Source of the DNA: an uncultured Candidatus Saccharibacteria bacterium
GTDB lineage: Bacteria; Patescibacteriota; Minisyncoccia; Phycocordibacterales; GWA1-40-21
NCBI GenBank assembly: GCA_964562105.1
Contig: CAZLRP010000002.1
Location: forward strand, 19,222-83,221
Direction of reading: 5' to 3'
Length of the DNA: 64,000 nucleotides
Part shown: piece by piece, positions 3,149-53,000 of the stretch
Position numbering within the stretch: position 1 is the first letter of the stretch
Layout of the letters: each line of letters begins with the position of its first letter
Notes under the pieces: model-generated
The model's database searches: none
What the model saw: only the letters and a program-made list of their open reading frames with translations
What the model was told of the DNA's origin: nothing
Translations under genes and position numbers: made by a program

Positions 3149-4819
3149 TTACAGATTTCTCTTCACAAAAAGCCTTACAATTCTTAATTCTTCGTAAGTA
3201 TAAGCGAGCCCCAGTTTATTTTTTATCGGTGAAAGCAAAAAATCGCGATTTTCTCCATAAAGTTCACGAAAAGCCATCCAGATTTTTTTGTACTTCCCTG
3301 TTGGGACTTCTTTTTTTAAATGATTTATATCAAAGGTCGGATCTTCTGTAATAATTTTTTCTATATGGTCTAAAATCGTTCCTATTTTTACTCCTTTGAT
3401 TTCTAAAATTTCTTTGAGTCCCATTCCTTGTATAAGCATATTTTTTGTTTCTTGCATCGGTGAGATTCTGTTCTTTTTCTTCTTATCAATCTTAGTTCCT
3501 TCTGGTGGAGCTACTTTTTTCAAAAATTCTTCCTGTTTTTGTTTTACTTCCTTATCTGATAGTAAATAAAACCACTGCTTATCAGAATCAGACATTTCCT
3601 TCAAATCTTCATCAAAAATCATTATATCTTCCCTCACCTGTAGTGCATTTTTATTTATTCCAAGGAGACGAAGGCCTTCAAGCGTGCGAACACGAGAAAG
3701 CGCAACATATCCCATTCCTTTTTCAAAAGATTTTGAAAGGTCCACTTCAACAGCATCCAAGCTCATACCTTGGCTTTTGTGCACTGTGATAGCCCAAGCT
3801 AGACGGAGAGGATATTGTGTAATCGTCGCTTTAATTTTTCCTTCTTCTTCAATAACCCAATTTACTTTTTCCGGAGTGATTATCTTCCCTGAAGTAAGCA
3901 TAATTTTCGGTCCATAATTTGAACATTCAATCACTTTTCCGAGAGTTCCATTTGCATATCCTTCTTCAAAATTATTTTTTACAAACATCACTCTGGCACC
4001 TTTTTTTAGGCGCAAAATTTCCGGTGCAAGACAACTTTTCTTCAACGCTTCCACGAGAGCCTTTCTTCCTTTATCTTCCATCTGATATGTAAAAATCTGG
4101 CCAAAAAGTTTATTAAGCTCACTGTCATTTATAGTATCCACATTTATATTATGGGTGTGGAGCTTCGTTGGTTCAATTCCCTCTTTTAAACAAGCGTTGT
4201 TTCTTGAATTTAAACAAAACAAAGATTCTTCAGAAAGATTATTTCCGCGAATTCCATTCAAAATTTTTATAAACTTATCTTCTTTGTGTCTATATTGCTC
4301 TTCCAAATAGCATATTTTTAAATCTAGTTTTTTCCAAGTTTCTGATTTATAGGAAAAATGAGATTCTTTTTCGCCCATTCTTGAAACTGGCGGAAGCTGA
4401 AAAAAATCTCCACAAAGTATCACCTGCATTCCACCGAATGGAAGCTGATTTCTTTTTAAATGTCTTGCAATTCTTTCTATCAAATCTAGCCGAAAATGAT
4501 GTAGCATTGAAACCTCATCAATAATCAAAACATCAGTATTTGCAAATCTGTCATGTAAATATTTTTTGCTTTCTAAATCCTCAAGATCGTATTCTGAAAG
4601 CTCATCGCGAATTCCAAGTCCGCTCCAAGAATGAATTGTCGTTCCACCCATATGTGTTGCGGCAATCCCGGTGCTAGCCGTAATACCAACTTCAACTCCT
4701 TTATTTTTAAGAAATTTTATATATTCGTTTAGAAGATGTGTTTTTCCGCTTCCCGCCGCTCCGGTAATGTAGCAGTTGTATCCCATCTTCAATATGTCCA
4801 GCGCATCCTTTTGGGTCAT
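3149..4819 (-). CDS. PIF1/RecD-like ATP-dependent DNA helicase with C-terminal HTH-like extension
   Basis: Walker A (ITGAAGSGKTHLL), Walker B (VLIIDEVSM), QLPPV motif and a C-terminal UvrD_C_2-like segment (LRLAWAITVHKSQGMSLD). Confidence 0.8.
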   Translation of the reverse strand: MTQKDALDILKMGYNCYITGAAGSGKTHLLNEYIKFLKNKGVEVGITASTGIAATHMGGTTIHSWSGLGIRDELSEYDLEDLESKKYLHDRFANTDVLIIDEVSMLHHFRLDLIERIARHLKRNQLPFGGMQVILCGDFFQLPPVSRMGEKESHFSYKSETWKKLDLKICYLEEQYRHKEDKFIKILNGIRGNNLSEESLFCLNSRNNACLKEGIEPTKLHTHNINVDTINDSELNKLFGQIFTYQMEDKGRKALVEALKKSCLAPEILRLKKGARVMFVKNNFEEGYANGTLGKVIECSNYGPKIMLTSGKIITPEKVNWVIEEEGKIKATITQYPLRLAWAITVHKSQGMSLDAVEVDLSKSFEKGMGYVALSRVRTLEGLRLLGINKNALQVREDIMIFDEDLKEMSDSDKQWFYLLSDKEVKQKQEEFLKKVAPPEGTKIDKKKKNRISPMQETKNMLIQGMGLKEILEIKGVKIGTILDHIEKIITEDPTFDINHLKKEVPTGKYKKIWMAFRELYGENRDFLLSPIKNKLGLAYTYEELRIVRLFVKRNL

Positions 4820-7531: not shown

Positions 7532-9604
7532 ATGCTTATTTCACAAATGAAAAAGAATAACAAATTCTGGAAAGAGAGAAGAAAAGACAACCGAAAGACT
7601 GAACACTCTGGCAAATTAAGGATTCTAAGTGGTAAAATCAAAGCCATCCGAGGACATACAGCCTATTTTATATCTGATATAAATAATATTTCAGTCGAAA
7701 TTTCTACAAGACAGATAAATACTGCAATGGCTGGAGATAAGGTTGAAATTAAGTTATTTAAAAAAAATAAAGCTGGGGTCCACGAAGGTGAAGTGGTAAA
7801 AATTCTAAGTCGCGCAAAAAATTATTTTGTCGGAACTATTGAATTGTCTGCCAAAGGTGTACTTGTGATTCCAGATGATAGAAGAATTAAAATTTCAGTA
7901 AAAATTACCCCGGAAAAAGCCATCGATTTAAAAAACAAGGATAAGGTTAGGGTAAAAATAATAAAATGGGTAGAAGCCCCTGCGTTTTCCGAAGGAGAGA
8001 TTGTAACTGTTTTAGGCAAAAAAGGAGATAATTCCACCGAGATGAATTCTATTGCGATAGATAAAGGTTTTGATATAGATTTTCCCGCGCAGGTTTTACA
8101 GGAATCCAAAAATATTTTCAATCAAAGCGCAAAAATTTCTTCCGAAGAAATCGCAAAGAGAAAAGATTTGAGAAATACGCTTACCTTTACGATTGACCCA
8201 AAAACTGCAAAAGATTTTGACGATGCAATTTCCTTTAAAAAACTCTCGAATGGAAATTTTGAAATTGGGGTTCATATCGCCGATGTATCTCACTACGTCA
8301 CAGAAAAAAGCGAGCTAGACAAAGAAGCTTATAAGCGAGGATGTTCCGTGTATCTTCCCGATAGAACGATCCCTATGCTTCCCTTTGAGCTTTCTGATAA
8401 CCTCTGCAGTTTGAGCGAAGGAGATGAAAAACTCGCCTTTTCAGCTATTTTTGAAATTAATCCTCATGCAAAAGTACTTTCAAAATGGTTTGAAAAATCT
8501 GTCATAAAATCTGCAAAAAGATTCACTTATGAAAGTGCCCAAGAAATTTTGAATGCAAAAACAGGTCAGCACTTTGAAGAGCTTAATACATTAAATAAAA
8601 TTGCAAAACTTTTGAGACGTGAAAAATTCCAAAAAGGCGCGATAGATTTTGAACAGGAAGAAATAGCTTTTGAACTAGACGAGGCTGGAAAACCTATAAA
8701 AATTTACAAAAAACAAAGACTTGATACTCACAAACTAGTTGAAGAATACATGCTTCTTGCAAACAAAGAAGTTGCTGAATATGTCTATAAATTTGAGAAA
8801 AAGTCCGGTAAACTGTTCCCTCTTCCGTATCGTATTCACGATTTTCCAGACAAAGATAGAATTTCCGAGCTCGCAGTTTTTGTAAAAGCTTTGGGACATG
8901 AGCTTATTATCGGAAAAACAGGAAGCATTACAGGAAAAGATATGCAGGCACTTTTTGCTCAAGTAGAAGGAAAAGCTGAAGAATCACTTGTAAAAACTGC
9001 TGCGATTCGCTCAATGTCAAAAGCAATCTACTCAACAAAAAATATCGGACATTTCGGACTGGCCTTTGAATATTACGCACACTTCACCTCGCCTATCAGA
9101 AGATATCCTGATCTTTTGGTTCACAGGATTTTGCAAAAAATACTTAGCAAAGACCGCAGTCAAATAAAAAGCCAATTTGACGGGGCAAGAAATATCGCCC
9201 ACGAAAAGTCTGCTGACCTCGTGGCAAGAGAAATAAATCTGGTATTTTACGAGAAAGCTTGTTCACACAGTACAGATCAAGAAATAAAAGCTTCCGAAGC
9301 AGAACGTGACGGAAGAAAATACAAACAAATAGAATATATGCAAGATAAAGTTGGAAAAACTTTTGACGGTATTATTACCGGCGTCACTGAATGGGGTATT
9401 TATGCGGAAGATTCGCAAACTAGAGCGGAGGGTATGATAAAGCTTTCTTCACTCGGAGATGACTTCTATAAACTTGATGCAAAAACTTATTCTGTAATCG
9501 GAGAAAAAACAAAACAAGTTTATTCGCTTGGACAAAAAGTAAAAATTAAACTAGTTTCTGCAGATTTAGACAAAAAGCAGATGGATTATGAAATAATTAG
9601 CTAA
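7532..9604 (+). CDS. rnr: Ribonuclease R (RNB-family 3'-5' exoribonuclease with C-terminal S1 domain)
   Basis: Cold-shock/OB N-terminus, RNB motifs (HFGLAFEYYAHFTSPIRRYPDLLVHR) and a C-terminal S1-like domain. Confidence 0.9.
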   Translation: MLISQMKKNNKFWKERRKDNRKTEHSGKLRILSGKIKAIRGHTAYFISDINNISVEISTRQINTAMAGDKVEIKLFKKNKAGVHEGEVVKILSRAKNYFVGTIELSAKGVLVIPDDRRIKISVKITPEKAIDLKNKDKVRVKIIKWVEAPAFSEGEIVTVLGKKGDNSTEMNSIAIDKGFDIDFPAQVLQESKNIFNQSAKISSEEIAKRKDLRNTLTFTIDPKTAKDFDDAISFKKLSNGNFEIGVHIADVSHYVTEKSELDKEAYKRGCSVYLPDRTIPMLPFELSDNLCSLSEGDEKLAFSAIFEINPHAKVLSKWFEKSVIKSAKRFTYESAQEILNAKTGQHFEELNTLNKIAKLLRREKFQKGAIDFEQEEIAFELDEAGKPIKIYKKQRLDTHKLVEEYMLLANKEVAEYVYKFEKKSGKLFPLPYRIHDFPDKDRISELAVFVKALGHELIIGKTGSITGKDMQALFAQVEGKAEESLVKTAAIRSMSKAIYSTKNIGHFGLAFEYYAHFTSPIRRYPDLLVHRILQKILSKDRSQIKSQFDGARNIAHEKSADLVAREINLVFYEKACSHSTDQEIKASEAERDGRKYKQIEYMQDKVGKTFDGIITGVTEWGIYAEDSQTRAEGMIKLSSLGDDFYKLDAKTYSVIGEKTKQVYSLGQKVKIKLVSADLDKKQMDYEIIS

Positions 9605-13497: not shown

Positions 13498-13518
13498 AAA
13501 TTATGATTTATTATTTTT

Positions 13519-13655
13519 ATCCGCACACTAATTCTATCATCGTTGCATCGTGTTCTTAATATCAGTAAATATTATGTTGTTTATTAAGTAAGTTTAATTT
13601 TATATAACTAATCTCTCTGCGCAACAAAAACACAATGATAGAGTTAGTGTGCGGA
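13519..13655. repeat. Family-A palindromic element copy 1 (about 137 bp; termini CCGCACAC...GTGTGCGG with 35-nt arm complementarity)
   Basis: Left arm tccgcacactaattctatcatcgttgcatcgtgtt and right arm gcaacaaaaacacaatgatagagttagtgtgcgga. The right 35 nt are identical to the copy at 52862-53000. The element overlaps the last 4 codons and stop of the nusB-Nudix gene and ends 22 nt before the rnc start codon. Confidence 0.7.
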
Positions 13656-14543
13656 CTTGCTACTTATTATTGTTATAGCTTTTGTGATGATCGGCAATAT
13701 ATCATTATAAAAATTAAGGTTTTGAATTTCTTGAAGCTTGAACCATTTGGCATCATCAAGGCCTCCGCTGTCTCCGCGTTTTAATTCTGTTCTCTCGGCT
13801 TTTGCAAGAAAATATATCACCTGTTTTCTTATTTTTCCTTCTTCGGGATGATTTGCCACATATTCATTTTTTAAAAGTTCATCTTCAATCGTGATATCAA
13901 TACCCATTTCTTCTTTTATTTCCCTCACCGCTCCTATTTTTGGATCTTCGCCTGCATCTATCTTTCCTTTTGAAAGAGTCCACTTCCCAAAAACATCGTG
14001 AACGAGAGCAAAATAAATATTTCCGTCTTCAACACTATAGACCACAGCTCCCGCGAGTTGTTTTATCGGCATTTGCTCAAACGGAACATCTTTATGTTTT
14101 TTAGAAACTTCGTCTTTGCCTGGCTCTCCAAGCTCTTTGTATATAGTGCCCAAAACTCCATTTATAAAGCCTCCGCTCTTTTCTCCGCTGTAAGTTTTTG
14201 CAAGCTCAATAGCTTCGTTAATTGCAACTTTTGCCGGAACTTCTTTTCTATCAGAGAACAACAGCTCATAAAGCCCCAGACGCAAAATATTTCTGTCGGC
14301 GATAGAAATTTTTTCTATCGGCCAGTCAGGCGCAGCTTTTACAATAATACTGTCCAAATCCGTTTTTTTATCAATTATTCCTTTCAAAAGATTTTCGGAA
14401 AAATTTTTTTCTGCATTTCCCTCTCCAAATTCTTTATTATTTCTTTCTAGAGATAATAAAGCTTCTTCTCTTGAAGAATTTCTAAAATCCCACTCAAAAG
14501 CGGATTGAAATACTATTGATCTTGCAAGGTGCCTGCTAAACAT
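13644..14543 (-). CDS. nusB: NusB (antitermination factor)-Nudix hydrolase fusion protein
   Basis: N-terminal half is NusB-like (ARSIVFQSAFEWDF...VAINEAIELAKTYSGEKSGGFINGVLG). C-terminal half has a Nudix box (GKWTLSKGKIDAGEDPKIGAVREIKEEMG). Confidence 0.75.
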   Translation of the reverse strand: MFSRHLARSIVFQSAFEWDFRNSSREEALLSLERNNKEFGEGNAEKNFSENLLKGIIDKKTDLDSIIVKAAPDWPIEKISIADRNILRLGLYELLFSDRKEVPAKVAINEAIELAKTYSGEKSGGFINGVLGTIYKELGEPGKDEVSKKHKDVPFEQMPIKQLAGAVVYSVEDGNIYFALVHDVFGKWTLSKGKIDAGEDPKIGAVREIKEEMGIDITIEDELLKNEYVANHPEEGKIRKQVIYFLAKAERTELKRGDSGGLDDAKWFKLQEIQNLNFYNDILPIITKAITIISSKSAH

Positions 14544-15081: not shown

Positions 15082-15516
15082 TTAGATTCTGAATGTTTTA
15101 TCAACCCGTGACATATCGTCAACAGCTTTGATAAATGCTTTCTGGTAGTTCATAAAGAGTTTTGCTAAAAATTCTTTAGGAGCCCATAAACAGATTTTCA
15201 ACGTTTCTTCGTTTGTTCTTTTTACAATTATTTCTTCACCGGGGACTATTTTTCCGGAGATTTCAGTAACCAAAAAAAATACTTTATTATTCTCTCCGTC
15301 TTCCCGATAAACTTCTCGAAATTTTATAGGGGTTAATTTTTTGTTTGTATTTCCCAAAAATTCTCGTACAAGTGTTTGATCAAACCTTTCTGGATATTTT
15401 CCATATCCTCCCAAAGGCTTCACCTTATCGGGGTCTCTAATATCAGTAGCTCCCAGTATATACCATGCGCCTCCTATCCTAATGATACAAAATGCCACAC
15501 AATACCAACTTTTCAT
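15082..15516 (-). CDS. Nudix-fold paralog with a degenerate Nudix box (likely catalytically inactive)
   Basis: WYILGATDIRDPDKVKPLGGYGKY...VREFLGNTN aligns with the neighbour's WKVLGATDSRFPNDAKIPGGTNKD...KREFYEETG, but the REx2EE glutamates are lost. Confidence 0.5.
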   Translation of the reverse strand: MKSWYCVAFCIIRIGGAWYILGATDIRDPDKVKPLGGYGKYPERFDQTLVREFLGNTNKKLTPIKFREVYREDGENNKVFFLVTEISGKIVPGEEIIVKRTNEETLKICLWAPKEFLAKLFMNYQKAFIKAVDDMSRVDKTFRI

Positions 15517-17570: not shown

Positions 17571-20500
17571 ATGCCTAAATTTATTCATTTACATACGCAC
17601 AGTCACTACAGTTTGCTTAACGCCCTGCCTAAATTAAAAGAGCTTATTCATACAGCAAAAGATTTAGATATGCCGGCTCTTGCTTTGACAGACGCAGGAA
17701 ATATGTACGGAGCAATTGAATTTTATCAGAATTGCAAAAAGAACGGGATTAAACCGATTATCGGAGTAGATTTTTATGTCGCTGCAAGAACTCGCACTGA
17801 CAAACAAGGAGGCGTAGATAATCGCCGAACTCGCCTAGTTCTTTTAGCAAAAAATGAAATCGGCTACAAAAATCTTATAAAACTTGTCACTGATTCTTAT
17901 TTTGAAGGATTTTATTATAAGCCAAGAATAGATCGCGAGCTCATAGAAAAATATTCTGATGATTTGGTCTGCATTATGCCACATTTTTCTGGAGAAACTT
18001 CCCACGCCTTAAAAAATGGAGACATTGAAAAAGCTGAAAATATTATAAATTGGTATAAAAAAGTTTATGGGAAAGAAAATTTTTTCTTGGAAGTAACACA
18101 TCATCCTGAAATAGAAGGACAGATTGAACTCAAAGAAAAAATTATAAAATTAGCAAAAGAAACGAACACTCAGATTGTAGCAGGACACGATGTTTATTAT
18201 CTTAAACCAGAAGATAAAATGGCCCGAGATACACTTGTCCAAGTAAATTCGCATTCGGACTTTTCAGACCGAGAGCAAAAAGAAAGCGCTGATGATTTTT
18301 CTTTTATCTCATCTGAAAAAGCAGAAGAATATTTTAAAGATATTCCGAAAGCTTTGGAAAACACGCTTAAGATTGCGGATATGTGTAATATTGAAATAAA
18401 GCTTGGTAAAGAAGCGTGGGTATTTCCAGACTTTGTAGTAGAAAGTGGCCTTACACACGATGAAGAATTAAAAAGGCTCACATATCTTGGCATAGATAAA
18501 AGAAATCTTTCGCATTCAAAAGAAGTTATAGATAGAGTTGAATACGAACTTAAAATCATCAAAGATAAGGGTTATTCAAAATATTTTCTTGTGGTATCCG
18601 ACTTGTTACGTTTTTCTGCAGAAAATGGAATCTATACGAACATCAGAGGTTCGGTCGCAGGATCAATCGTCACATATCTCACCGGCATTACAAAAGTAAA
18701 TCCGCTTGAATACAAACTTCCCTTCGAAAGATTCCTTAATCCTGAAAGACCTTCGGCACCCGATATTGATATGGACTTCGCCGACAACAGACGAGACGAC
18801 GTCATAAATTATACAAGACAAAAATATGGAAAAGATAATGTCGCACAAATTGGAACTTTCGGTACGATGATGGCTCGAGGTGCCGTCCGAGATGTTGCAA
18901 GAGCAATGGGCTTTCCGCTTCCCCTTGCCGATAAAATTGCCAAACTTGTGCCTTTGGGCGCGCAAGGTTTTCCGATGACCCTCAAAAAAGCACTTAGAGA
19001 TGTTCCGGAACTTAAAGAAATGTATGATAACAATAAAGATACAAAAACTATCATAGATATGGCAGAAAAAATTGAGGGATGTGCACGACATATTTCTGTT
19101 CACGCAGCCGGAGTTGTAATAGCACCAACAGCACTTACAAAGTATGTTCCGCTTCAATATGATCCTAAAGGCGAAGGGAAAATTATCACTCAATATGACA
19201 TGCACACCGTCGGTGAAGACGGCGTTGGACTTTTGAAATTTGATTTTCTTGGAATAAAAAATCTTTCAATACTTGCTGATGCCGTAGACAGAGTTAAAAA
19301 AATTGAAAATATAGATTTGGATATTGAAGCTATCCCACTTGATGATAAATTGACTTTTGAAATGCTTGCCCGTGGAGAAACCACCGGTCTTTTTCAGCTT
19401 AACGGCTCTGGAATGACAAAATATCTGAAAGATTTGAAACCAACAACTATCCATGATATCAACGCTATGGTTGCTCTTTATCGCCCAGGACCTATTGAAA
19501 TGATCCCCGAATATATAGACAGAAAACATCATCCTGAAAAAATAAAATATCTTGATCCGCGACTTAAAGAAATTCTTGATCAATCTTACGGGGTTATTAC
19601 ATATCAGGACGACGTCATGCTTACTGCTATAAAACTCGCGGGATATTCTTGGCTTGAAGCAGACAAACTTAGAAAAGCTATGGGTAAAAAAATCCCCGCA
19701 GAAATGCAAGCTCAGAAAGAAAAACTCTTAAAAGGTTTTGTTGAACACGGACTCACTGAGAAAAAAGCAGACACTCTTTGGAAACTCATTGAACCTTTTG
19801 CCGCTTACGGATTCAACAAAGCTCACGCTGCAAGTTATGGAAGAGTTTCTTATCAAACCGCTTATATGAAAGCAAACTTCCCCGCAATTTACATGTCTTC
19901 CGTGCTTACAGCAGATTCAGGGGATGTAGAAAAAATCGGCGAATTTATAACAGACTGCAAAAAAATGGGGATTCCAGTATTACCTCCATCCGTCAATGAA
20001 AGCTTCAGCGATTTCACTGTTGTAAAAACTCCTAGTGTAAGTCCACACGGAACTGGGCCAGATAGAGATAAAATTCGTTTTGGTCTTACAACAATTAAAA
20101 ATTTCGGTGAAGGAATTTCAAAAACCATTATTCACGAAAGAAAAGCAAAAGGTAAATTTAAATCTCTTTCAGATTTTCTTGAAAGAATTCAGACTAAAGA
20201 TATGAATAAGAGATCTCTTGAAGCTCTTATAAAAACCGGTGCACTTGATGACCTGCCTGCGCAGTCAGGATTTGCAGATAGAGGTGTCATGCTCGCAAAT
20301 ATGGAAAATCTTTTGAGATACAATAAAGAAGTAAGTAAACGAGACCAAAATCAGGATTCCCTTTTTGGAATTTTTGATGGTAATAACACACCAGATGACA
20401 CAAAAAAATATGAGGCCTTTACTCTTGAATCCGCAGAAAAAGCTACAATGAAAGACAAGCTCGCTTGGGAAAAAGACTTGCTCGGACTTTATATTTCTGG

Positions 20501-21042: not shown

Positions 21043-21079
21043 AAACATACGAATATACAAATATTACTAATGGTACAAA

Positions 21080-21158
21080 TGGCTACAAATAATTAATTCG
21101 TTTCGAATTTATTCGTAGCCATTCGTATCATTCGCATAATTCGTTAATTCGTAATAAC
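21080..21158 (+). promoter_or_regulatory. ATTCGTA heptamer direct-repeat array (motif copy A) in the thrS 5' region
   Basis: attcgtt..attcgtagcc attcgtatc attcgcata attcgtta attcgtaa with about 9-10 bp spacing, plus a flanking near-IR ATGGCTACAAATAA / TTATTCGTAGCCAT. Homologous to 29404-29449 and 36193-36250. Confidence 0.55.
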
Positions 21159-21169
21159 ATCATAAAAAT

Positions 21170-22960
21170 ATGGAAAACGAAAAATTACACAGAATGAGAC
21201 ACTCGCTCGCCCACATACTTGGCGCAGCTGTTATCGAATTGTATCCTGATGTAAAAATAGCAACAGGTCCAGCAATTGAAAACGGTTTTTATTATGATTT
21301 TGATTTTTCCGCACCGATTACAGACAAAGACCTTGGAAAAATTGAGCAAAAAATACGTGAACTTTCAAAAAAAATAAAATCTTTTGATAAAGCAGAAATT
21401 TCGGAGAATGATGCAAAGAAACTTTTCGCAGACAATCCATATAAACTTGAGCTTATAGATGAATATGCAAAAGACGGAAAAACTCTTACTGCTTATACTT
21501 CGGGAGATTTTACAGACCTTTGCGCAGGCCCTCACGTAGAAAGTATGGATGAAATTAAAAATAGCGCTTGGAAACTTGAAAGGCTTGCCGGAGCATATTG
21601 GAAAGGAGATGAAAACAATAAAATGCTTACAAGAATTTACGGCTTAGCATTTCCAACAAAAGAAGAACTTGATGCATACGAAAAACAACAAGAAGAAGCT
21701 AAGAAAAGAGATCATAGAAAGCTTGGAAAAGATTTAGATCTTTTTCACATGGATGAAAAAGTTGGGCTCGGTCTCCCTTTATGGCATCCAAAAGGAGCTA
21801 TGCTATGGAGAATCATTGAAGATTTTTGGTATCAGGAGCATCTCAAAAATGACTACGATTTAGTAAGAAGCCCGCATATAGGTAAAAAAGAATTATGGGA
21901 AACATCAGGTCATTGGGGTTTTTATAATTCAAGCATGTATCCTCCGCTTGAAGCAGGACAAACATTGAAAGAAAAACAGGAAGGTAAAAAAATTGAACAT
22001 TCTGAGGAATACTTACTTAAACCAATGAATTGTCCTTTTCATGTTCAGATATATAAAAACAGTCCAAAATCCTACAGAGAATTCCCTTTCAGATGGGCAG
22101 AATGTGGAACGGTTTACAGATTTGAGAAAAAAGGTGAACTTTCCGGACTAACTAGAGTAAGAGGATTCACACAAGACGACGCACACATACTTTGTAGAAA
22201 AGATCAGGTTGAAGATGAATTAAAAAGAGTCATTGATTTTATTTTATTTATTTATAAATCTTTTGGTTTTGATATTAGTTCAGTAAAGGTATTTCTTTCT
22301 TTGAGAGATCCAAATAATAAAGAAAAATATGCCGGTAATGATGAAGGTTGGGATTTTACTGAAGAAGTTTTAAGAAAAGTTGCCATAGAGAAAAAACTTG
22401 ATTTTGCAGAAGAAAAAGGAGAAGCGGCATTTTATGGACCAAAACTTGATTTTAAAGTCAAAGATGCTCTAGGAAGATTGTGGCAATGTTCCACACTACA
22501 ATTTGATTTTAATTTGCCTGAAAGATTTGATCTAACATTCATGAATTCAAAAAGCGAACAAGAAAGACCATACATGCTTCATAGAGCTCTCTTTGGAAGC
22601 TTTGAAAGATTTATAGGACTACTCATTGAACATTATTCTGGTGCATTCCCTCTCTGGCTCGCACCCGTGCAAATAAAAATAGTTCCGATAAGAGAAAATC
22701 ATAACGAGCATGCAGAAAAAATTTCTAAGGAACTAAAAGATGCTGGGTTCAGAGTAGATTGCGATACAAAAGAAGGAAATATGGGAGGAAAAGTTCGCGA
22801 TGCAAAAAATAATAAAATTCCTTATACGATAATCATCGGAGACAAAGATATTGAAGCTAAAAAAATATCAGTGGAATCAAGAGATAAAGGACAGCTCGGT
22901 CAGATGGATTTGAAAGATTTTATTGAAAAGATTGAAAAAGAAAAGGAAAACAGAGAGTAA
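21170..22960 (+). CDS. thrS: Threonyl-tRNA synthetase (lacks N-terminal TGS domain)
   Basis: HSLAHILGAAV editing-domain start, class-II core (FRWAECGTVYRFE, GFTQDDAHI), C-terminal anticodon-binding domain. Confidence 0.9.
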   Translation: MENEKLHRMRHSLAHILGAAVIELYPDVKIATGPAIENGFYYDFDFSAPITDKDLGKIEQKIRELSKKIKSFDKAEISENDAKKLFADNPYKLELIDEYAKDGKTLTAYTSGDFTDLCAGPHVESMDEIKNSAWKLERLAGAYWKGDENNKMLTRIYGLAFPTKEELDAYEKQQEEAKKRDHRKLGKDLDLFHMDEKVGLGLPLWHPKGAMLWRIIEDFWYQEHLKNDYDLVRSPHIGKKELWETSGHWGFYNSSMYPPLEAGQTLKEKQEGKKIEHSEEYLLKPMNCPFHVQIYKNSPKSYREFPFRWAECGTVYRFEKKGELSGLTRVRGFTQDDAHILCRKDQVEDELKRVIDFILFIYKSFGFDISSVKVFLSLRDPNNKEKYAGNDEGWDFTEEVLRKVAIEKKLDFAEEKGEAAFYGPKLDFKVKDALGRLWQCSTLQFDFNLPERFDLTFMNSKSEQERPYMLHRALFGSFERFIGLLIEHYSGAFPLWLAPVQIKIVPIRENHNEHAEKISKELKDAGFRVDCDTKEGNMGGKVRDAKNNKIPYTIIIGDKDIEAKKISVESRDKGQLGQMDLKDFIEKIEKEKENRE

Positions 22961-23008
22961 AAAAGGCGGTTCTGCGCAGCTTTATGCGAAGCAGAACCGC
23001 CTTTTTTA
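22961..23008. terminator. Intrinsic terminator ggcggttctgcgcagctttatgcgaagcagaaccgcc (near-identical copy at 24858-24894)
   Basis: 11-bp GC-rich stem flanked by A-run and T-run, after the thrS stop. Confidence 0.7.
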
Positions 23009-23016
23009 TTACTTTT

Positions 23017-23664
23017 TTAATTGTTAGTCAAACTTTTTTTAGCTACAAATTCAGACTTCACAACATATCTGTCGGTGTTATCGGATTTCGTACTAAAATT
23101 ATTACATGTAGAGATGGTCAGTATCTTACTTTTAGTATTGAACTCAACCATTGCTTTATCAGCGCTTTCCACTGATACAGACAAAACTTTATATACATAT
23201 TCATACTTATCCGAAAAAACATGGACTAAATCTCCTTGTTTCAAATTCTGCAATCCATTAAATGTTTTATATGCTTGATTATTAACAAGCTTGATTCCCG
23301 TGCTATGACCAAAAAGAAAAATATTTCCGCTCCCTCCTAAAAGTCCGGAGCCTGGATATCTTACTGCGCCTTTCAAAAGATAATCATTGAGTACTTCTAT
23401 ACTTGTAGTAGCGGGATTATAGATTTGAGAATCTACACCAATAGCGGGAATTTTTATATTAAGAGGCAATTCTCCAATTTGATTGCCTTTAAAATCTTGT
23501 CCTGGCTCTCTACCAAAAATTGATTTTAGTTGTTCTGGCACTAAATTAAAAAAATATAACGTGGAAAAAGTAAGAATTAATATAATAAAAAGATTAACAA
23601 AAAAATAGCCTTTGTTTTTTGAGATTAACTCTATAATTCCCTGCTTTTGCTGTTTATTGTCCAT
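23017..23664 (-). CDS. Sortase family transpeptidase
   Basis: N-terminal signal-anchor, LFGHS (His), LTISTC (Cys), conserved Arg region. Confidence 0.7.
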   Translation of the reverse strand: MDNKQQKQGIIELISKNKGYFFVNLFIILILTFSTLYFFNLVPEQLKSIFGREPGQDFKGNQIGELPLNIKIPAIGVDSQIYNPATTSIEVLNDYLLKGAVRYPGSGLLGGSGNIFLFGHSTGIKLVNNQAYKTFNGLQNLKQGDLVHVFSDKYEYVYKVLSVSVESADKAMVEFNTKSKILTISTCNNFSTKSDNTDRYVVKSEFVAKKSLTNN

Positions 23665-24813: not shown

Positions 24814-24852
24814 AAATAGAAGGTAGAATATAGGATATAGAAAATATAAATA

Positions 24853-24900
24853 CAAAAGGCGGTTCTGCGTAGCTTTATGCGAAGCAGAACCGCCTTTTGT
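24853..24900. terminator. Intrinsic terminator ggcggttctgcgtagctttatgcgaagcagaaccgcc (1-nt variant of the 22965-23001 hairpin)
   Basis: Between convergent genes 23773..24813(+) and gyrB(-). Confidence 0.7.
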
Positions 24901-24942
24901 ATTTTGCATTGAATTTCCTATCTTCTACCTTTTACATTCTGT

Positions 24943-29378: not shown

Positions 29379-29403
29379 GATTGATCTGGTATTTAAATTT
29401 AAT

Positions 29404-29449
29404 TATTTGTAGCCATTTGTATCATTCGAATAATTTGTATATTCGTATG
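29404..29449 (+). promoter_or_regulatory. ATTCGTA/ATTTGTA heptamer array (motif copy B) between pheS and pheT
   Basis: ttatttgtagccatttgtatcattcgaataatttgtatattcgtatg. Same order and orientation on the + strand as copy A. Confidence 0.5.
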
Positions 29450-29456
29450 TTCATCT

Positions 29457-30221: not shown

Positions 30222-30268
30222 AACCCCAATTATACAGAATTTTTACCTTTTTGCATCATATATGTTGT

Positions 30269-30339
30269 GCCATTCCCGTGAAAACGGAAATCTAGATTGA
30301 ATTAAATTAATTTTGGATTCCCGTTTTCACGGGAATGGC
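30269..30339. repeat. Family-B REP-like palindromic element copy 1 (GCCATTCCCG...CGGGAATGGC)
   Basis: Outer IR plus two internal ATTCCCG-loop-CGGGAAT hairpins and the shared core AATCTAGATTGAATTAAATTAATTTTGGATTCCC. Confidence 0.7.
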
Positions 30340-30345
30340 AGATGT

Positions 30346-32514: not shown

Positions 32515-32587
32515 GCCACCTTAGCTCAGTTGGTAGAGCAACGCTTTTGTAAAGCGAAGGTCCCCAGTTCAAGTCTGGGAGGTGGCT
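32515..32587 (+). tRNA. tRNA-Thr (anticodon TGT)
   Basis: Cloverleaf: acceptor GCCACCT/AGGTGGC, D-arm GCTC-AGTTGGTA-GAGC, anticodon loop TTTGTAA, T-arm CCCAG-TTCAAGT-CTGGG. No encoded CCA. Confidence 0.85.
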
Positions 32588-32736
32588 CAATAAAAAAAAT
32601 CCCTTATCAGGTTTTTTATTGAGTTACCTCAGAAAGCAAACTGCTTTGCTTTCGTCCAGACTTGAAAGACTTTTCCGTATCGAATGAAATGAAAATGGAA
32701 AAGTACCTGGCTACGTGGTAGCCAAGTCTGGGAGGT

Positions 32737-32755
32737 GGCTCCAAAAACAAAAACC
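32737..32755 (+). repeat. 19-bp direct repeat of the tRNA-Thr 3' end (CAAGTCTGGGAGGTGGCTC)
   Basis: Identical to 32570-32588. Lies about 150 bp downstream of the tRNA. An inverted partial copy (tccagacttgaaag) also occurs between. Confidence 0.7.
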
Positions 32756-36192: not shown

Positions 36193-36250
36193 TTACGAAT
36201 TATTATACTAATATACGAATTTATGCGAATGATACGAATGGCTACAAATA
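36193..36250 (-). promoter_or_regulatory. ATTCGTA heptamer array (motif copy C) abutting the rpmE start codon
   Basis: Reverse complement reads tttgtagccattcgtatcattcgcataaattcgtatattagtataataattcgtaac-ATG, nearly identical to copy A upstream of thrS. Confidence 0.55.
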
Positions 36251-36371
36251 TACACCATACGAACTATTCAGATGCAAGAATAGTACATTATTTTATAAAA
36301 AATACAAGAGCGGTTTTGGCTTCGCCAAAACCGCTCTTGTATTTTTTATTTTTCCTAAAAACTAGGACCTA

Positions 36372-41293: not shown

Positions 41294-41305
41294 AATTTTT
41301 TAATT

Positions 41306-41376
41306 GTCATTCCCGTGCAGACGGGAATCCAGAATTAGTTTAATACAACCTAGATTCCCGCATCCGCGGGAATGAC
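41306..41376. repeat. Family-B REP-like element copy 2 (inverted core orientation), 12 bp upstream of the SET-gene start
   Basis: gtcattcccgtgcagacgggaatccagaattagtttaatacaacctagattcccgcatccgcgggaatgac. Confidence 0.7.
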
Positions 41377-41381
41377 ACACA

Positions 41382-43110: not shown

Positions 43111-44970
43111 ATGTGTGGAATTGCCGGGACTGTGAGTCCCGAAATAAAAGAAAAAGATAGTGTTATACGAGAAATGATTTCTCGCATTTTTCATCGTGGA
43201 CCAGATGATGACGGTTTTTTTGTGGACGAGAATATTGCTTTGGGTATGCGCAGATTGTCTATAATAGATATTTCTACCGGTAAACAACCTATATGGTCGC
43301 AAGATAAAAAGAAAGTTATATTTTTTAATGGTGAAATTTATAATTATCTCGAACTCCGTAAAGAATTGATTTCAAAAGGCCATATTTTTGATACACATGG
43401 CGACACAGAAGTTATCTTGCACATGTATGAAGAATATGGAGAAAAAATGCTTACCCAGCTACGAGGTATGTTTGCATTTTGCATATATGACAAAGAAAGC
43501 AAAGCTGTTTTTCTGGCACGAGATTTTTTCGGAATAAAACCGCTTTATTATCTTAAAGATGCCGAAAAAATAGTTGCGTTCTCGTCTGAAATAAAAAGTT
43601 TTTTGTCTTACCCAGGATTCAAAACCGTGGTCAATGATTCAGCTGTCTACAATTATTTATCATTCCAATACAATCCACTTCCCGAAACTTTTTTCAAATC
43701 CGTTTATAAGCTTCCTCCTGCCCACTGCATGAAAATTGACTTAAAAAATGGAAGCGTGGAAATTAAAAAATATTGGTCATACGAAATTAAGCCAGATGAA
43801 AATTTGGAAGAGATTGAGACCACAAAAAAAATCCACGAAACTATACGAGATTCAGTAGAACATCACATGATTGCAGATGTTCCCGTCGGCTCTTTTCTTT
43901 CTGGCGGAATTGACAGTAGTATTATTGCCACGATGATGCAGGAAATCCGTGGAGGCAACCCCAGTCAAATAAAAAGCCAATTTGACGGGGCAAGAAAAAT
44001 TAAAACTTTTACAGTTGGTTTTGATACACTAACAGAAGGCGTAGAATCAAAAGAAACATCAGATTTTCTTGGCACAGATCATACAGAAATAAAAATCGGG
44101 CCTGAAGAATATTTTAATATTCTTCCAAAAGCCGTATATCACTTTGATGAGCCCGTCGCCGATCCTTCCGCTATTGGGCTTTATTTTGTAGCCCGTGAAG
44201 CAAAAAAACATGTCAAAGTTGTACTTTCTGGTGAGGGGGCTGATGAACTTTTCGGCGGATATAATATATATCTTGCACCTTTTGCTTACAAAAAAATATC
44301 TTGGATTCCTAAAAGCTTTTTGAAAATAATTTTAAAAATACCATTTGAATTTTTTGGAAAAAACTATATTCGCCGCGCGAGCGACTTGCTTTCAAACTGG
44401 TATGTAGGCAACGCTTCAATATTTAAAGATTTTGAGCGAGATTTGTTGTGGAAAAAACAAGTTGAACAAAAATATTCCCTTTCGCCATTTTATGAACATG
44501 TAAAAAATTTGAGTGATTCTACGCAAATGCAATATATTGATGTTTCTACTTGGCTCATTGGAGACATCCTGGCAAAAGCTGATAAAATGACAATGGCAAA
44601 TTCATTGGAGCTTCGCGTGCCTTTTTTGGATAAGAAAGTTTCAGATTTGGCCTCCACTTTGCCAGATAAATTTAAATGGCGTAAAGGCGTGACTAAATAC
44701 CTTTTGCGAGAGGCATTTAAGAATGTAATCCCCGAGAGCACCCGCAATAGAAAAAAGCTTGGTTTTCCAACACCAATTCGCGATTGGTTCACCGAAGACA
44801 GACAAGATTTATACCAGAAAATATACGACTGTAAATACATAAGAGAGCATATGAATGTTGAATATATTAAAAAAATTGTGGAAGATCATATAAATAAAAA
44901 AATCGATAACTCCAGAAAAATATATTTACTTTTAATGCTCGCTTTGTGGTTTGAGGTATTTGTTAAATAA
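43111..44970 (+). CDS. asnB: Asparagine synthase (glutamine-hydrolysing)
   Basis: MCGIAG N-terminal nucleophile, SGGIDSS PP-loop. Confidence 0.9.
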   Translation: MCGIAGTVSPEIKEKDSVIREMISRIFHRGPDDDGFFVDENIALGMRRLSIIDISTGKQPIWSQDKKKVIFFNGEIYNYLELRKELISKGHIFDTHGDTEVILHMYEEYGEKMLTQLRGMFAFCIYDKESKAVFLARDFFGIKPLYYLKDAEKIVAFSSEIKSFLSYPGFKTVVNDSAVYNYLSFQYNPLPETFFKSVYKLPPAHCMKIDLKNGSVEIKKYWSYEIKPDENLEEIETTKKIHETIRDSVEHHMIADVPVGSFLSGGIDSSIIATMMQEIRGGNPSQIKSQFDGARKIKTFTVGFDTLTEGVESKETSDFLGTDHTEIKIGPEEYFNILPKAVYHFDEPVADPSAIGLYFVAREAKKHVKVVLSGEGADELFGGYNIYLAPFAYKKISWIPKSFLKIILKIPFEFFGKNYIRRASDLLSNWYVGNASIFKDFERDLLWKKQVEQKYSLSPFYEHVKNLSDSTQMQYIDVSTWLIGDILAKADKMTMANSLELRVPFLDKKVSDLASTLPDKFKWRKGVTKYLLREAFKNVIPESTRNRKKLGFPTPIRDWFTEDRQDLYQKIYDCKYIREHMNVEYIKKIVEDHINKKIDNSRKIYLLLMLALWFEVFVK

Positions 44971-49083: not shown

Positions 49084-49094
49084 ATTTGTTTTGT

Positions 49095-49162
49095 GTCATT
49101 CCCGTGTAAACGGGAATCTAGGTTGAATTTTAATAATGGATTCCCGCATTCGCGGGAATGAC
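49095..49162. repeat. Family-B REP-like element copy 4, 11 bp upstream of the gatB start codon
   Basis: gtcattcccgtgtaaacgggaatctaggttgaattttaataatggattcccgcattcgcgggaatgac. Confidence 0.7.
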
Positions 49163-49290
49163 AATACAAAAATACAAATAAATAATAGCATAAAAATTAT
49201 AAAATGAGCTTCATTTTTATCCTTGACAAAAGATTTATAATGAGGTACAATTCACAAGTAGCTAAATTTGTTCTTCAAAAGGAGAAAAAC

Positions 49291-50046: not shown

Positions 50047-50055
50047 TTGTACACT

Positions 50056-50126
50056 GTCATTCCCGCGGAGGCGGGAATCTAGGTTGAATTAAATTAATTC
50101 TGGATTCCCGCCTGCACGGGAATGAC
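50056..50126. repeat. Family-B REP-like element copy 5 (most complete)
   Basis: gtcattcccgcggaggcgggaatctaggttgaattaaattaattctggattcccgcctgcacgggaatgac. Just 3' of the obg stop. Confidence 0.7.
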
Positions 50127-50133
50127 ACACGAT

Positions 50134-52455: not shown

Positions 52456-52852
52456 CTCTGATTTCTTCTATATCCTTTGAAATATGATCTATCTTAACCC
52501 TGACATTTGTGATTTCTTCTTCCTCTTTAGCTACCTCGGCTTCAGTTTTATCTGTTACTTTTTTTTCTTTTTTAATTCCAGAAATAATAACTCTTTCTCC
52601 AATAAGGTTTGATACAAAAAGACCTGTCATAAGTAAGATGAGCGAAGACCAAATTACTGTAACCGGTTCATAAAAAAACCAACCCAAAAAACCACCCCTT
52701 GCCATTAAAATATCGGCTGTATGCCATATTCCTCTCCATAAAAGAATAGTCCCCATCCCACCGACAAATGCGTATATTATTGATCTGTGGCTCAACCTTA
52801 TTCTTACTCTATCTTCAAGCTTGTCAAAATAACTTACTATCGATTTAAACAT
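52436..52852 (-). CDS. Small membrane protein with C-terminal coiled coil
   Basis: Two TM helices followed by a KE-rich helix. Confidence 0.4.
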   Translation of the reverse strand: MFKSIVSYFDKLEDRVRIRLSHRSIIYAFVGGMGTILLWRGIWHTADILMARGGFLGWFFYEPVTVIWSSLILLMTGLFVSNLIGERVIISGIKKEKKVTDKTEAEVAKEEEEITNVRVKIDHISKDIEEIRDDITKK

Positions 52853-52861
52853 ATGAATCTT

Positions 52862-53000
52862 GTCCGCACACCAACTCTATCATCGTTACATTGTGTTTAC
52901 AGTATCATTAAACGTCAACTTTTATTTACTAAGAAAATTTGCTTTTATTTTACAAATCTCCTTTAGCAACAAAAACACAATGATAGAGTTAGTGTGCGGA
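52862..53000. repeat. Family-A palindromic element copy 2 (about 139 bp)
   Basis: Left arm tccgcacaccaactctatcatcgttacattgtgtt; right 35 nt identical to copy 1. Ends about 10 nt before the start codon of gene 52436..52852. Confidence 0.7.

Follow-up and report, generated by a model that had tools for sequence, protein, structure and literature searches.

We analysed a stretch of 64,000 nucleotides (hereafter the window; positions 19,222 to 83,221 of contig CAZLRP010000002.1, assembly GCA_964562105.1) from an uncultured Candidatus Saccharibacteria bacterium, in which two housekeeping genes carry the same short hairpin-forming insert in frame. The host genes are rnr, encoding RNase R (7532-9604, + strand; Pfam RNB, CSD2 and S1), and asnB, encoding a glutamine-hydrolysing asparagine synthetase (43111-44970, + strand; Pfam Asn_synthase and GATase_7). 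The G+C content of the window is 34%, and the closest homologues of its RNase R and AsnB proteins were found in metagenome bins of Patescibacteria/Paceibacterota. An initial annotation of the window had described an identical 36-mer in the two genes, in one frame and with a negligible probability of chance identity, and this was confirmed: the + strand of the window matches CAGTCAAATAAAAAGCCAATTTGACGGGGCAAGAAA exactly at 9157-9192 and again at 43962-43997, two occurrences where the number expected by chance is zero. No further match was found in the window with up to three mismatches. Both hosts are long open reading frames (ORFs), and the rnr and asnB copies are read in the same frame, encoding the peptide SQIKSQFDGAR. 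We refer to the repeated unit as family A.

The exact boundaries of the insertion were set by a codon-level comparison of the filled alleles in the window with close alleles that lack it (empty alleles). At asnB the empty allele (locus L092) reads GGAGACAA^AAAAATTAAA, and the window has GGAGGCAA followed by the insert CCCCAGTCAAATAAAAAGCCAATTTGACGGGGCAAG and then AAAAATTAAA. At rnr the empty allele (L093) reads AGCAAAGA^AAATATT, and in the window 36 nt (CCGCAGTC...GGGGCAAG) have been added between AGCAAAGA and AAATATC. In both genes the 36 nt have entered cleanly between codon positions 2 and 3, with an A-rich run immediately 3' of them. While the repeat described initially is real, the empty sites place the true unit 3 nt further upstream, at 9154-9189 in rnr and at 43959-43994 in asnB (both + strand). 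The similar flanks of 4-5 nt that had also been pointed out are indeed visible, and correspond to the first 3 nt of the element itself (5' side) and to the A-rich target (3' side). The filled-versus-empty comparison detected no target-site duplication at the rnr or asnB family A sites, nor at the site of a second element in rnr described below, and it ruled out a 4-nt duplication of AAGA or GCAA.

Family A consists of a 32-nt hairpin, CCCC-A-GTCAAAT-loop9-ATTTGAC-GGGG, followed by the tetranucleotide CAAG. The internal palindrome GTCAAAT...ATTTGAC that had been recognised at the outset is therefore only part of an 11-bp stem that carries one bulged A; as single-stranded DNA the hairpin has a folding energy of -9.1 kcal/mol (z = -5.6). 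The rnr copy has its core at 9154-9185 (CCGCAGTCAAAT-AAAAAGCCA-ATTTGACGGGG) and its CAAG tail at 9186-9189, and translates as (D)RSQIKSQFDGA(R). The asnB copy has its core at 43959-43990 and its CAAG tail at 43991-43994, and translates as (G)NPSQIKSQFDGA(R). The two units, which run from CCGC to GGGGCAAG in rnr and from CCCC to GGGGCAAG in asnB, differ by 1 nt and have a loop of the commonest loop subfamily, which argues for separate insertions rather than an exchange between rnr and asnB.

The distribution of the segment among orthologues is patchy, as expected if the 12 amino acids are a lineage-specific insertion. Alignments showed that 118 of the 120 best AsnB homologues lack the segment, with one other carrier (P0004), and that it is likewise missing from 118 of 120 RNase R orthologues, again with one other carrier (P0136). 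At the AsnB site the consensus is MQEIRGDKKIKTF and the window reads MQEIRG-GNPSQIKSQFDGAR-KIKTF; the two closest AsnB orthologues (P0002 and P0003, 82% identical) have no segment. The RNase R consensus is ILSKE-NIA-EKNLAFYEKAC, to which the window adds RSQIKSQFDGAR and then, 9 bases on, HEKSADLVAR. P0136 has only the first of these two RNase R segments, P0148 only the second, and the remaining orthologues neither. Neighbour-joining trees were built from the alignment columns outside the inserts. In the AsnB tree, P0001 groups with P0002 and P0003, which are both empty, and P0004 joins the empty P0008 in another clade; the RNase R carriers P0121 and P0136 likewise belong to separate clades in which the nearest neighbours are empty. 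The position of the carriers in separate clades implies that the same codon was hit independently or that the insert was precisely lost several times. Moreover, the window holds the empty allele at three family A sites known from elsewhere, in SecA, a membrane protein and RNase HII.

Further copies were sought in other genes and genomes, as the initial annotation had proposed, by scanning species-representative genomes with a pattern of free loop length and metagenomes with a tail-less pattern. The species-representative genomes yielded 7 loci (Paceibacterota bins, unclassified bins and two records labelled Saccharibacteria) and the metagenomes 82 loci with the family A pattern; no copy was detected in the viral contigs scanned. 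Including the window, we counted 97 copies at ~67 non-redundant sites, and the carriers are Paceibacteria-like genomes together with records labelled Saccharibacteria. The element lies in sense orientation within a long ORF at 29 sites, antisense within a long ORF at 6 and outside any long ORF at 32. The initial annotation described in-frame insertion into ORFs; antisense copies and copies outside ORFs exist too.

Among the sense sites, 27 of the 29 are read in one frame, as xPSQ(I/M)xxxFDG(A/V), the phase being that of entry between codon positions 2 and 3, and every sense copy with a 9-nt loop uses this single common frame, with the consensus xPSQIKxQFDGAR. Their hosts, as identified with Pfam, include a GatA-type amidase, RecJ, a release factor, LigA, ArgS, NAD kinase, TatD, TopA, GrpE, ComM, TsaE, SecA, a Mur ligase, UvrB, a Wzy/TPR membrane protein, ComEC (two copies), a second RNase R site and RNase HI, the last at two different sites that are both filled in L039. 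Antisense copies were found in genes for PolA, RNase HII, a SpoU methylase, an NYN protein and VirD4-like proteins, where they encode xPVKLxxxLTG or PRQIxFLFDWG.

Flanks and internal proportions are also regular across the non-redundant copies. The base at position -1 is A in 56 of 65, and the four bases past the stem follow C/T-A-A/G-G (CAAG in 24, CAGG in 10, TAAA in 8 and CGAG in 4 of 65 copies), giving a tail consensus of CRRG, mostly CAAG. For sense copies in long ORFs the next six bases are ~85% A/T and form an AAAWAT-like stretch. The loop varies in sequence and is 9 nt long in 53 of 65 copies. Because this loop length also dominates outside long ORFs, the 36-nt size is intrinsic to the element and not only the product of a reading-frame filter. 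A third hairpin family, family C, often directly adjoins the copies that lie outside long ORFs. At L084 (~4150-4215) a family A loop is 38 nt long and holds two further small hairpins, with the look of a nested insertion. Such nesting and clustering are characteristic of REP-like repeats. A stem variant without the bulge, otherwise perfect (CCCAGTCAAAT...ATTTGACTGGG), was noted at L065 (~6544). A broader superfamily defined as any GC-clamped hairpin followed by CAAG was not supported, with CAAG behind just 6 of 433 hairpins of that kind.

A concatenated 52-aa peptide query against a collection of 5.8 billion proteins matched P0241 only, and so did a profile built from five contexts of the peptide when run on 1.84 billion cluster representatives, probably because clusters at 50% identity are represented by insert-free orthologues. 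Rfam identified no family at the insert site or in the rest of the window, except one tRNA. No account of such elements was met in full-text searches that paired palindromic-repeat terms with Patescibacteria, Parcubacteria or the Candidate Phyla Radiation.

Beyond what the initial annotation reported, the rnr linker holds a second, different mini-element, which we call family B. It occupies 9199-9228 (+ strand), 9 nt 3' of the family A copy, and comprises a 26-nt sequence that folds as a hairpin (CCACGAAAAGTCTGCTGACCTCGTGG) followed by CAAG, 30 nt in total, translated as (A)HEKSADLVA(R). The empty site (L093) reads ATTGC^AGAAAAAAAT, and the filled site in the window reads GC, then CCACGAAAAGTCTGCTGACCTCGTGG-CAAG, then AGAAA. 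The same 30 nt are present in L091, the rnr gene of P0148. An exact copy of the 26 nt with CAAG was also found in L009, within an unrelated 603-aa ORF where an antisense copy of family A lies 7 nt away, so that families A and B are adjacent at two unrelated loci. Family B resembles family A in its CAAG tail, its codon phase and the kind of target it occupies, while the stems of the two are unrelated.

Comparison of occupied sites suggests that what is shared is the DNA rather than the peptide. Between the window and L001 (encoding P0004), the asnB genes are 73% identical in nucleotide sequence and the inserts are identical at 35 of 36 positions, while the codons adjoining the insert differ at synonymous sites. 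Where the two asnB genes encode the same residue, the same codon is used at 12 of 13 positions in the insert versus 50% outside (p = 0.002); for family B in the window and L091, the corresponding figures are 10 of 10 versus 61% (p = 0.007). This codon identity places the constraint, or the recency, in the DNA. Orthologous sites are occupied in diverged species in ArgS, RNase HI, LigA and asnB; at these sites the stems are identical (23/23), the loops match at 4-9 of 9 positions and the flanks are 61-87% identical. The ArgS site is occupied in three species that have the unusual tail CGAGTA in common and perfect stems throughout. This suggests that the element was inserted there once, long ago, and that its stem was kept while loops and flanks diverged. 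Stem retention at occupied sites also leaves room for repeated re-insertion.

The positions proposed in the initial annotation, between the PP-loop and the next strand in AsnB and in the variable linker after the RNB motif in RNase R, were borne out. AsnB was aligned to 1ct9, and RNase R to its B. subtilis counterpart (8cdu). In the AlphaFold model of the window AsnB the mean pLDDT (predicted local distance difference test score) is 87.5; the sole long stretch of low confidence, with pLDDT <50 at residues 284-293, falls inside the insert, between the helix of the SGGxDSS PP-loop (267-279) and the strand at 298-304, and the insert is therefore predicted to form a disordered loop. Both rnr inserts, A and B, map in the alignment to 8cdu to the variable linker that follows the RNB domain. 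The top strand of family A has one stop-free frame only, encoding a hydrophilic peptide, and the peptides of the two open reverse frames (CPVKLAFYLTGV and PRQIGFLFDWG) are hydrophobic. Genic copies are found in sense and antisense orientation at a ratio of ~27:6, versus the 1:2 expected from open frames alone. This excess can be explained by the hydrophobicity of the reverse-frame peptides, and a mechanistic orientation bias may also play a part. Most likely, the insert is translated and tolerated rather than functional.

The same AsnB loop contains different short inserts in P0026, P0088, P0041, P0056, P0032 and others, including ENPSSRAKLTTEQG (also +12 aa), NPSSRAKLTTEQG, KNPSTDSGL and RPNADVASALRMSDAEIAAT. 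This loop is an insertion hotspot, and other element families may be present there.

These data describe previously undescribed 30-36-nt hairpin elements, of at least two families, that lie in frame in housekeeping genes of Patescibacteria. We consider it probable that family A is a miniature, non-autonomous palindromic mobile element of the kind represented by repetitive extragenic palindromic (REP) sequences and Rickettsia palindromic elements (RPEs), dispersed in Patescibacteria. Its patchiness and dispersal support the original suggestion of a tiny mobile module that tolerates translation, and the comparison with RPEs made at that time was apt.

According to the summary of Ogata et al. 2000 in PMC10969869, RPEs are Rickettsia-specific families of ~100-150 bp that contribute tens of residues. 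Judged by that summary, family A resembles RPEs in being palindromic, in lying in frame within unrelated conserved genes with the extra peptide read through, in occurring also outside genes and in its patchy presence among orthologues. It differs in its size (36 nt, 12 aa), in being a single hairpin with a 4-nt tail, in the phylum of its hosts and in having no sequence relationship, so that in-frame insertion is shared with RPEs but neither length nor sequence family is.

As described by Di Nocera et al. 2013 (PMC3733652), REP superfamilies have GTAG or CGTC outside the stem at one end, an 8-9-bp stem starting with AT and a loop of 4-5 nt; CGTC-type REPs have no dedicated transposase, and genes for replication and repair are frequent hosts of intragenic REPs. 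Like REPs and REPINs, family A is a repeated imperfect palindrome of 20-40 nt with a short unpaired conserved end, a constant stem and a variable loop, makes no target duplication and is sometimes genic, its hosts likewise including replication and repair genes. In contrast to REPs, it ends in CAAG (CTTG on the other strand), has a 9-nt loop and a bulged A in the stem, occurs as singletons instead of dimers and has about half of its detected sites in long ORFs. The REP tag, stem and loop are thus all lacking; CGTC does occur on the bottom strand of family A, but inside the stem.

Elements of the IS200/IS605 insertion sequence family encode the transposase TnpA, have two different hairpin ends, insert 3' of a fixed tetra- or pentanucleotide without duplication and can excise seamlessly. 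By analogy, family A would share with them a hairpin end, a terminal tetranucleotide belonging to the element, the absence of duplication and possibly seamless excision. It falls outside that class, with a single hairpin, no transposase found and a weakly conserved 5' flank (A at -1). The very small dispersed repeats of filamentous cyanobacteria, mobile-looking and tens of nucleotides long, which Elhai and colleagues reportedly described in 2008 and which are said to nest and to lie within genes at times, offer a further lead only: size and nesting are similar, while sequences and phylum differ from family A.

Several other classes were rejected. A miniature inverted-repeat transposable element (MITE) does not fit, with no target duplication at the three window sites and no parent insertion sequence seen. 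Clustered regularly interspaced short palindromic repeats (CRISPR) form arrays, and none was observed: there are at most 3 copies per locus, spaced from 186 bp to ~5 kb, often in opposite orientation or genic. The density is far too low for a DNA uptake sequence, and neither a cassette nor a core site is evident that would suggest an attC-like site.

Drawing on the proposal for REPs and the REP-associated tyrosine transposase (RAYT), and on the 'peel-and-paste' transposition of IS200/IS605, insertion of family A would go through a folded single strand, and a hairpin-recognising enzyme would cut at the conserved tail tetranucleotide. Genic copies would survive through landing in the open phase and in surface loops or linkers.

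Several observations weigh against a mobile element. A tblastn search of ~630 kb of DNA with an IS200 TnpA query returned nothing significant, no RAYT (Y1 transposase) gene was found in that DNA, inspection of the window by eye showed housekeeping genes throughout, and the density is low, at 2 family A copies per 64-kb window. The scans demanded exact stems, which biases how perfect the stems look as well as the ratio of copies within long ORFs to those outside. Same-site occupancy may reflect inheritance, and the kept stems speak for a hairpin under selection, or for copies that homogenise one another, rather than for purely selfish decay. Finally, current mobility of family A is putative, judged from sequence comparison, and translation of the insert is presumed from its open frame.

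The points on stem retention are also those that would favour a functional DNA or RNA cis-element, for example a site for binding or processing or one acting in mRNA stability or replication, maintained by selection for a benefit to the host and not by selfish transposition. We regard this as unlikely. Stems are intact at orthologous sites despite diverged loops and flanks, but part of this perfection is an artefact of exact-match scanning; the genic sense bias would also fit, but the hydrophobic reverse-frame peptides can account for it. The derived tail of the ArgS trio, with its indication of one old insertion and a preserved stem, and the conservation of synonymous sites within the insert remain on the side of a cis-element. 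Set against them, family A occurs in both orientations, within and outside ORFs and in unrelated genes of no common function, most orthologues lack it, there are only two copies in 64 kb, and Rfam has no match. Alternatively, the peptide SQIKSQFDGAR might itself be a protein module selected for its function, with DNA identity secondary, since the same peptide appears in one frame in many proteins. This is very improbable: it is precisely the synonymous positions that are conserved, the part encoded by the loop varies freely, antisense copies encode entirely different peptides, other copies lie outside long ORFs, and the AsnB insert is predicted to be disordered.

Another origin to be considered is a larger cassette, since excised, that left the 36-nt units behind as footprints or solo ends, such as a GIY-YIG gene between inverted hairpins. 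Exactly this arrangement exists at L064 (5566-5923), where a 100-aa GIY-YIG gene (Pfam E = 8e-17) is bracketed by two inverted family A copies, but it is found at just one of the ~67 sites. The RNase R orthologue P0172 (755 aa) has an in-frame GIY-YIG domain, but at a site that differs from those of families A and B. Clustering of the ORFs near the copies identified small GIY-YIG genes as the only ones that recur, with ORFs at most 1.5 kb from the element at 4 loci; 4 of 82 loci does not clearly exceed the background for such genes and is too few to claim an association, leaving a lead only. The units themselves are complete hairpins with a defined tail and clean junctions, with no partial scar, and we judge a cassette footprint to be quite improbable. 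An assembly chimera, or a single gene-conversion event within this genome that linked rnr and asnB, would account for just two near-identical copies in the window and has next to no probability. The same inserts occupy the same positions in the independent assemblies of P0004 (JGI) and P0136 (ENA), ~95 further copies lie in other genes and contigs, and the reading frames are intact; the agreement of NCBI, JGI and ENA assemblies excludes a chimeric assembly.

The mobile-element interpretation of family A can be taken further. Family A and family B could be 30-36-nt single-hairpin 'nano-transposons', the smallest active, site-selective mobile elements of bacteria, with at least two families ending in CAAG that repeatedly enter or precisely leave the same codons of the same housekeeping genes in different Patescibacteria lineages through a hairpin-specific enzyme, the hairpin being maintained after insertion. 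We offer this as a tentative possibility, more doubtful than not. If true, these would be the smallest active mobile elements yet seen in bacteria. Whatever their mode of spread, the tiny, gene-dense genomes of Patescibacteria carry hairpin repeats that add 10-12 residues to essential proteins, and the lineage-specific indels they produce could pass for adaptive protein insertions or for assembly errors. The clean junctions, the CAAG on two unrelated hairpins and the recurrent identical sites provide a compact test case for REP-like movement. The elements could also serve as a strain-level marker, as segments to mask in annotation and phylogenetics, and as a catalogue of insertion-tolerant loops in conserved enzymes.

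The window contains further repeats. The unit TGTC-ATTCCCGC-N4-GCGGGAAT forms four head-to-head dimers between genes (30268-30340, 41305-41377, 49094-49163 and 50055-50127) and is the CGTC-1/dRS3-type REP of Di Nocera et al. 2013 (PMC3733652). In related loci a hairpin of this type often abuts family A, and it is found in frame as IPAQAGI (L029) and LPAQAG (P0136). Within dnaE, at 20238-20297, DnaE reads ...DDLPAQSGFADRG... from CCTGCCTGCGCAGTCAGG, which may be a decayed in-frame family C hairpin.

Two intergenic repeats of ~150 nt (13509-13667 and 52852-53000) are 79-84% identical and have terminal inverted repeats TCCGCACACTAAYTCTATCATYGT, giving them a MITE-like appearance. Palindromes of 53-61 nt (AAAAGGCGGTTCTGCG...CGAAGCAGAACCGCCTTTT) at 22958-23018 and 24841-24903 are 94% identical, lie 1.9 kb apart on either side of a gene and are terminator-like. 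An AT-rich intergenic motif of ~45-53 nt (...ATTCGTATCATTCGAATGGCTACAAAT...) occurs in both orientations at 21044-21139, 29399-29451, 36218-36266 and 15475-15512, and could represent a promoter or operator common to these regions, or one more family of repeats. A 33-nt repeat at 32570-32602, which starts in the 3' end of tRNA-Thr (32515-32588), recurs 153 nt downstream at 32723-32755 with 88% identity and could be an integration remnant at the tRNA.

Two RNase R orthologues have additional features. The GIY-YIG domain of P0172 lies between ...FKRLPN and GNFEIGVH, with Pro/Gly/Arg-rich junction peptides on either side. On the contig of P0136, an RVT_1 reverse transcriptase gene and a bAvd-like gene adjoin the insert-bearing rnr and have the look of a diversity-generating retroelement.

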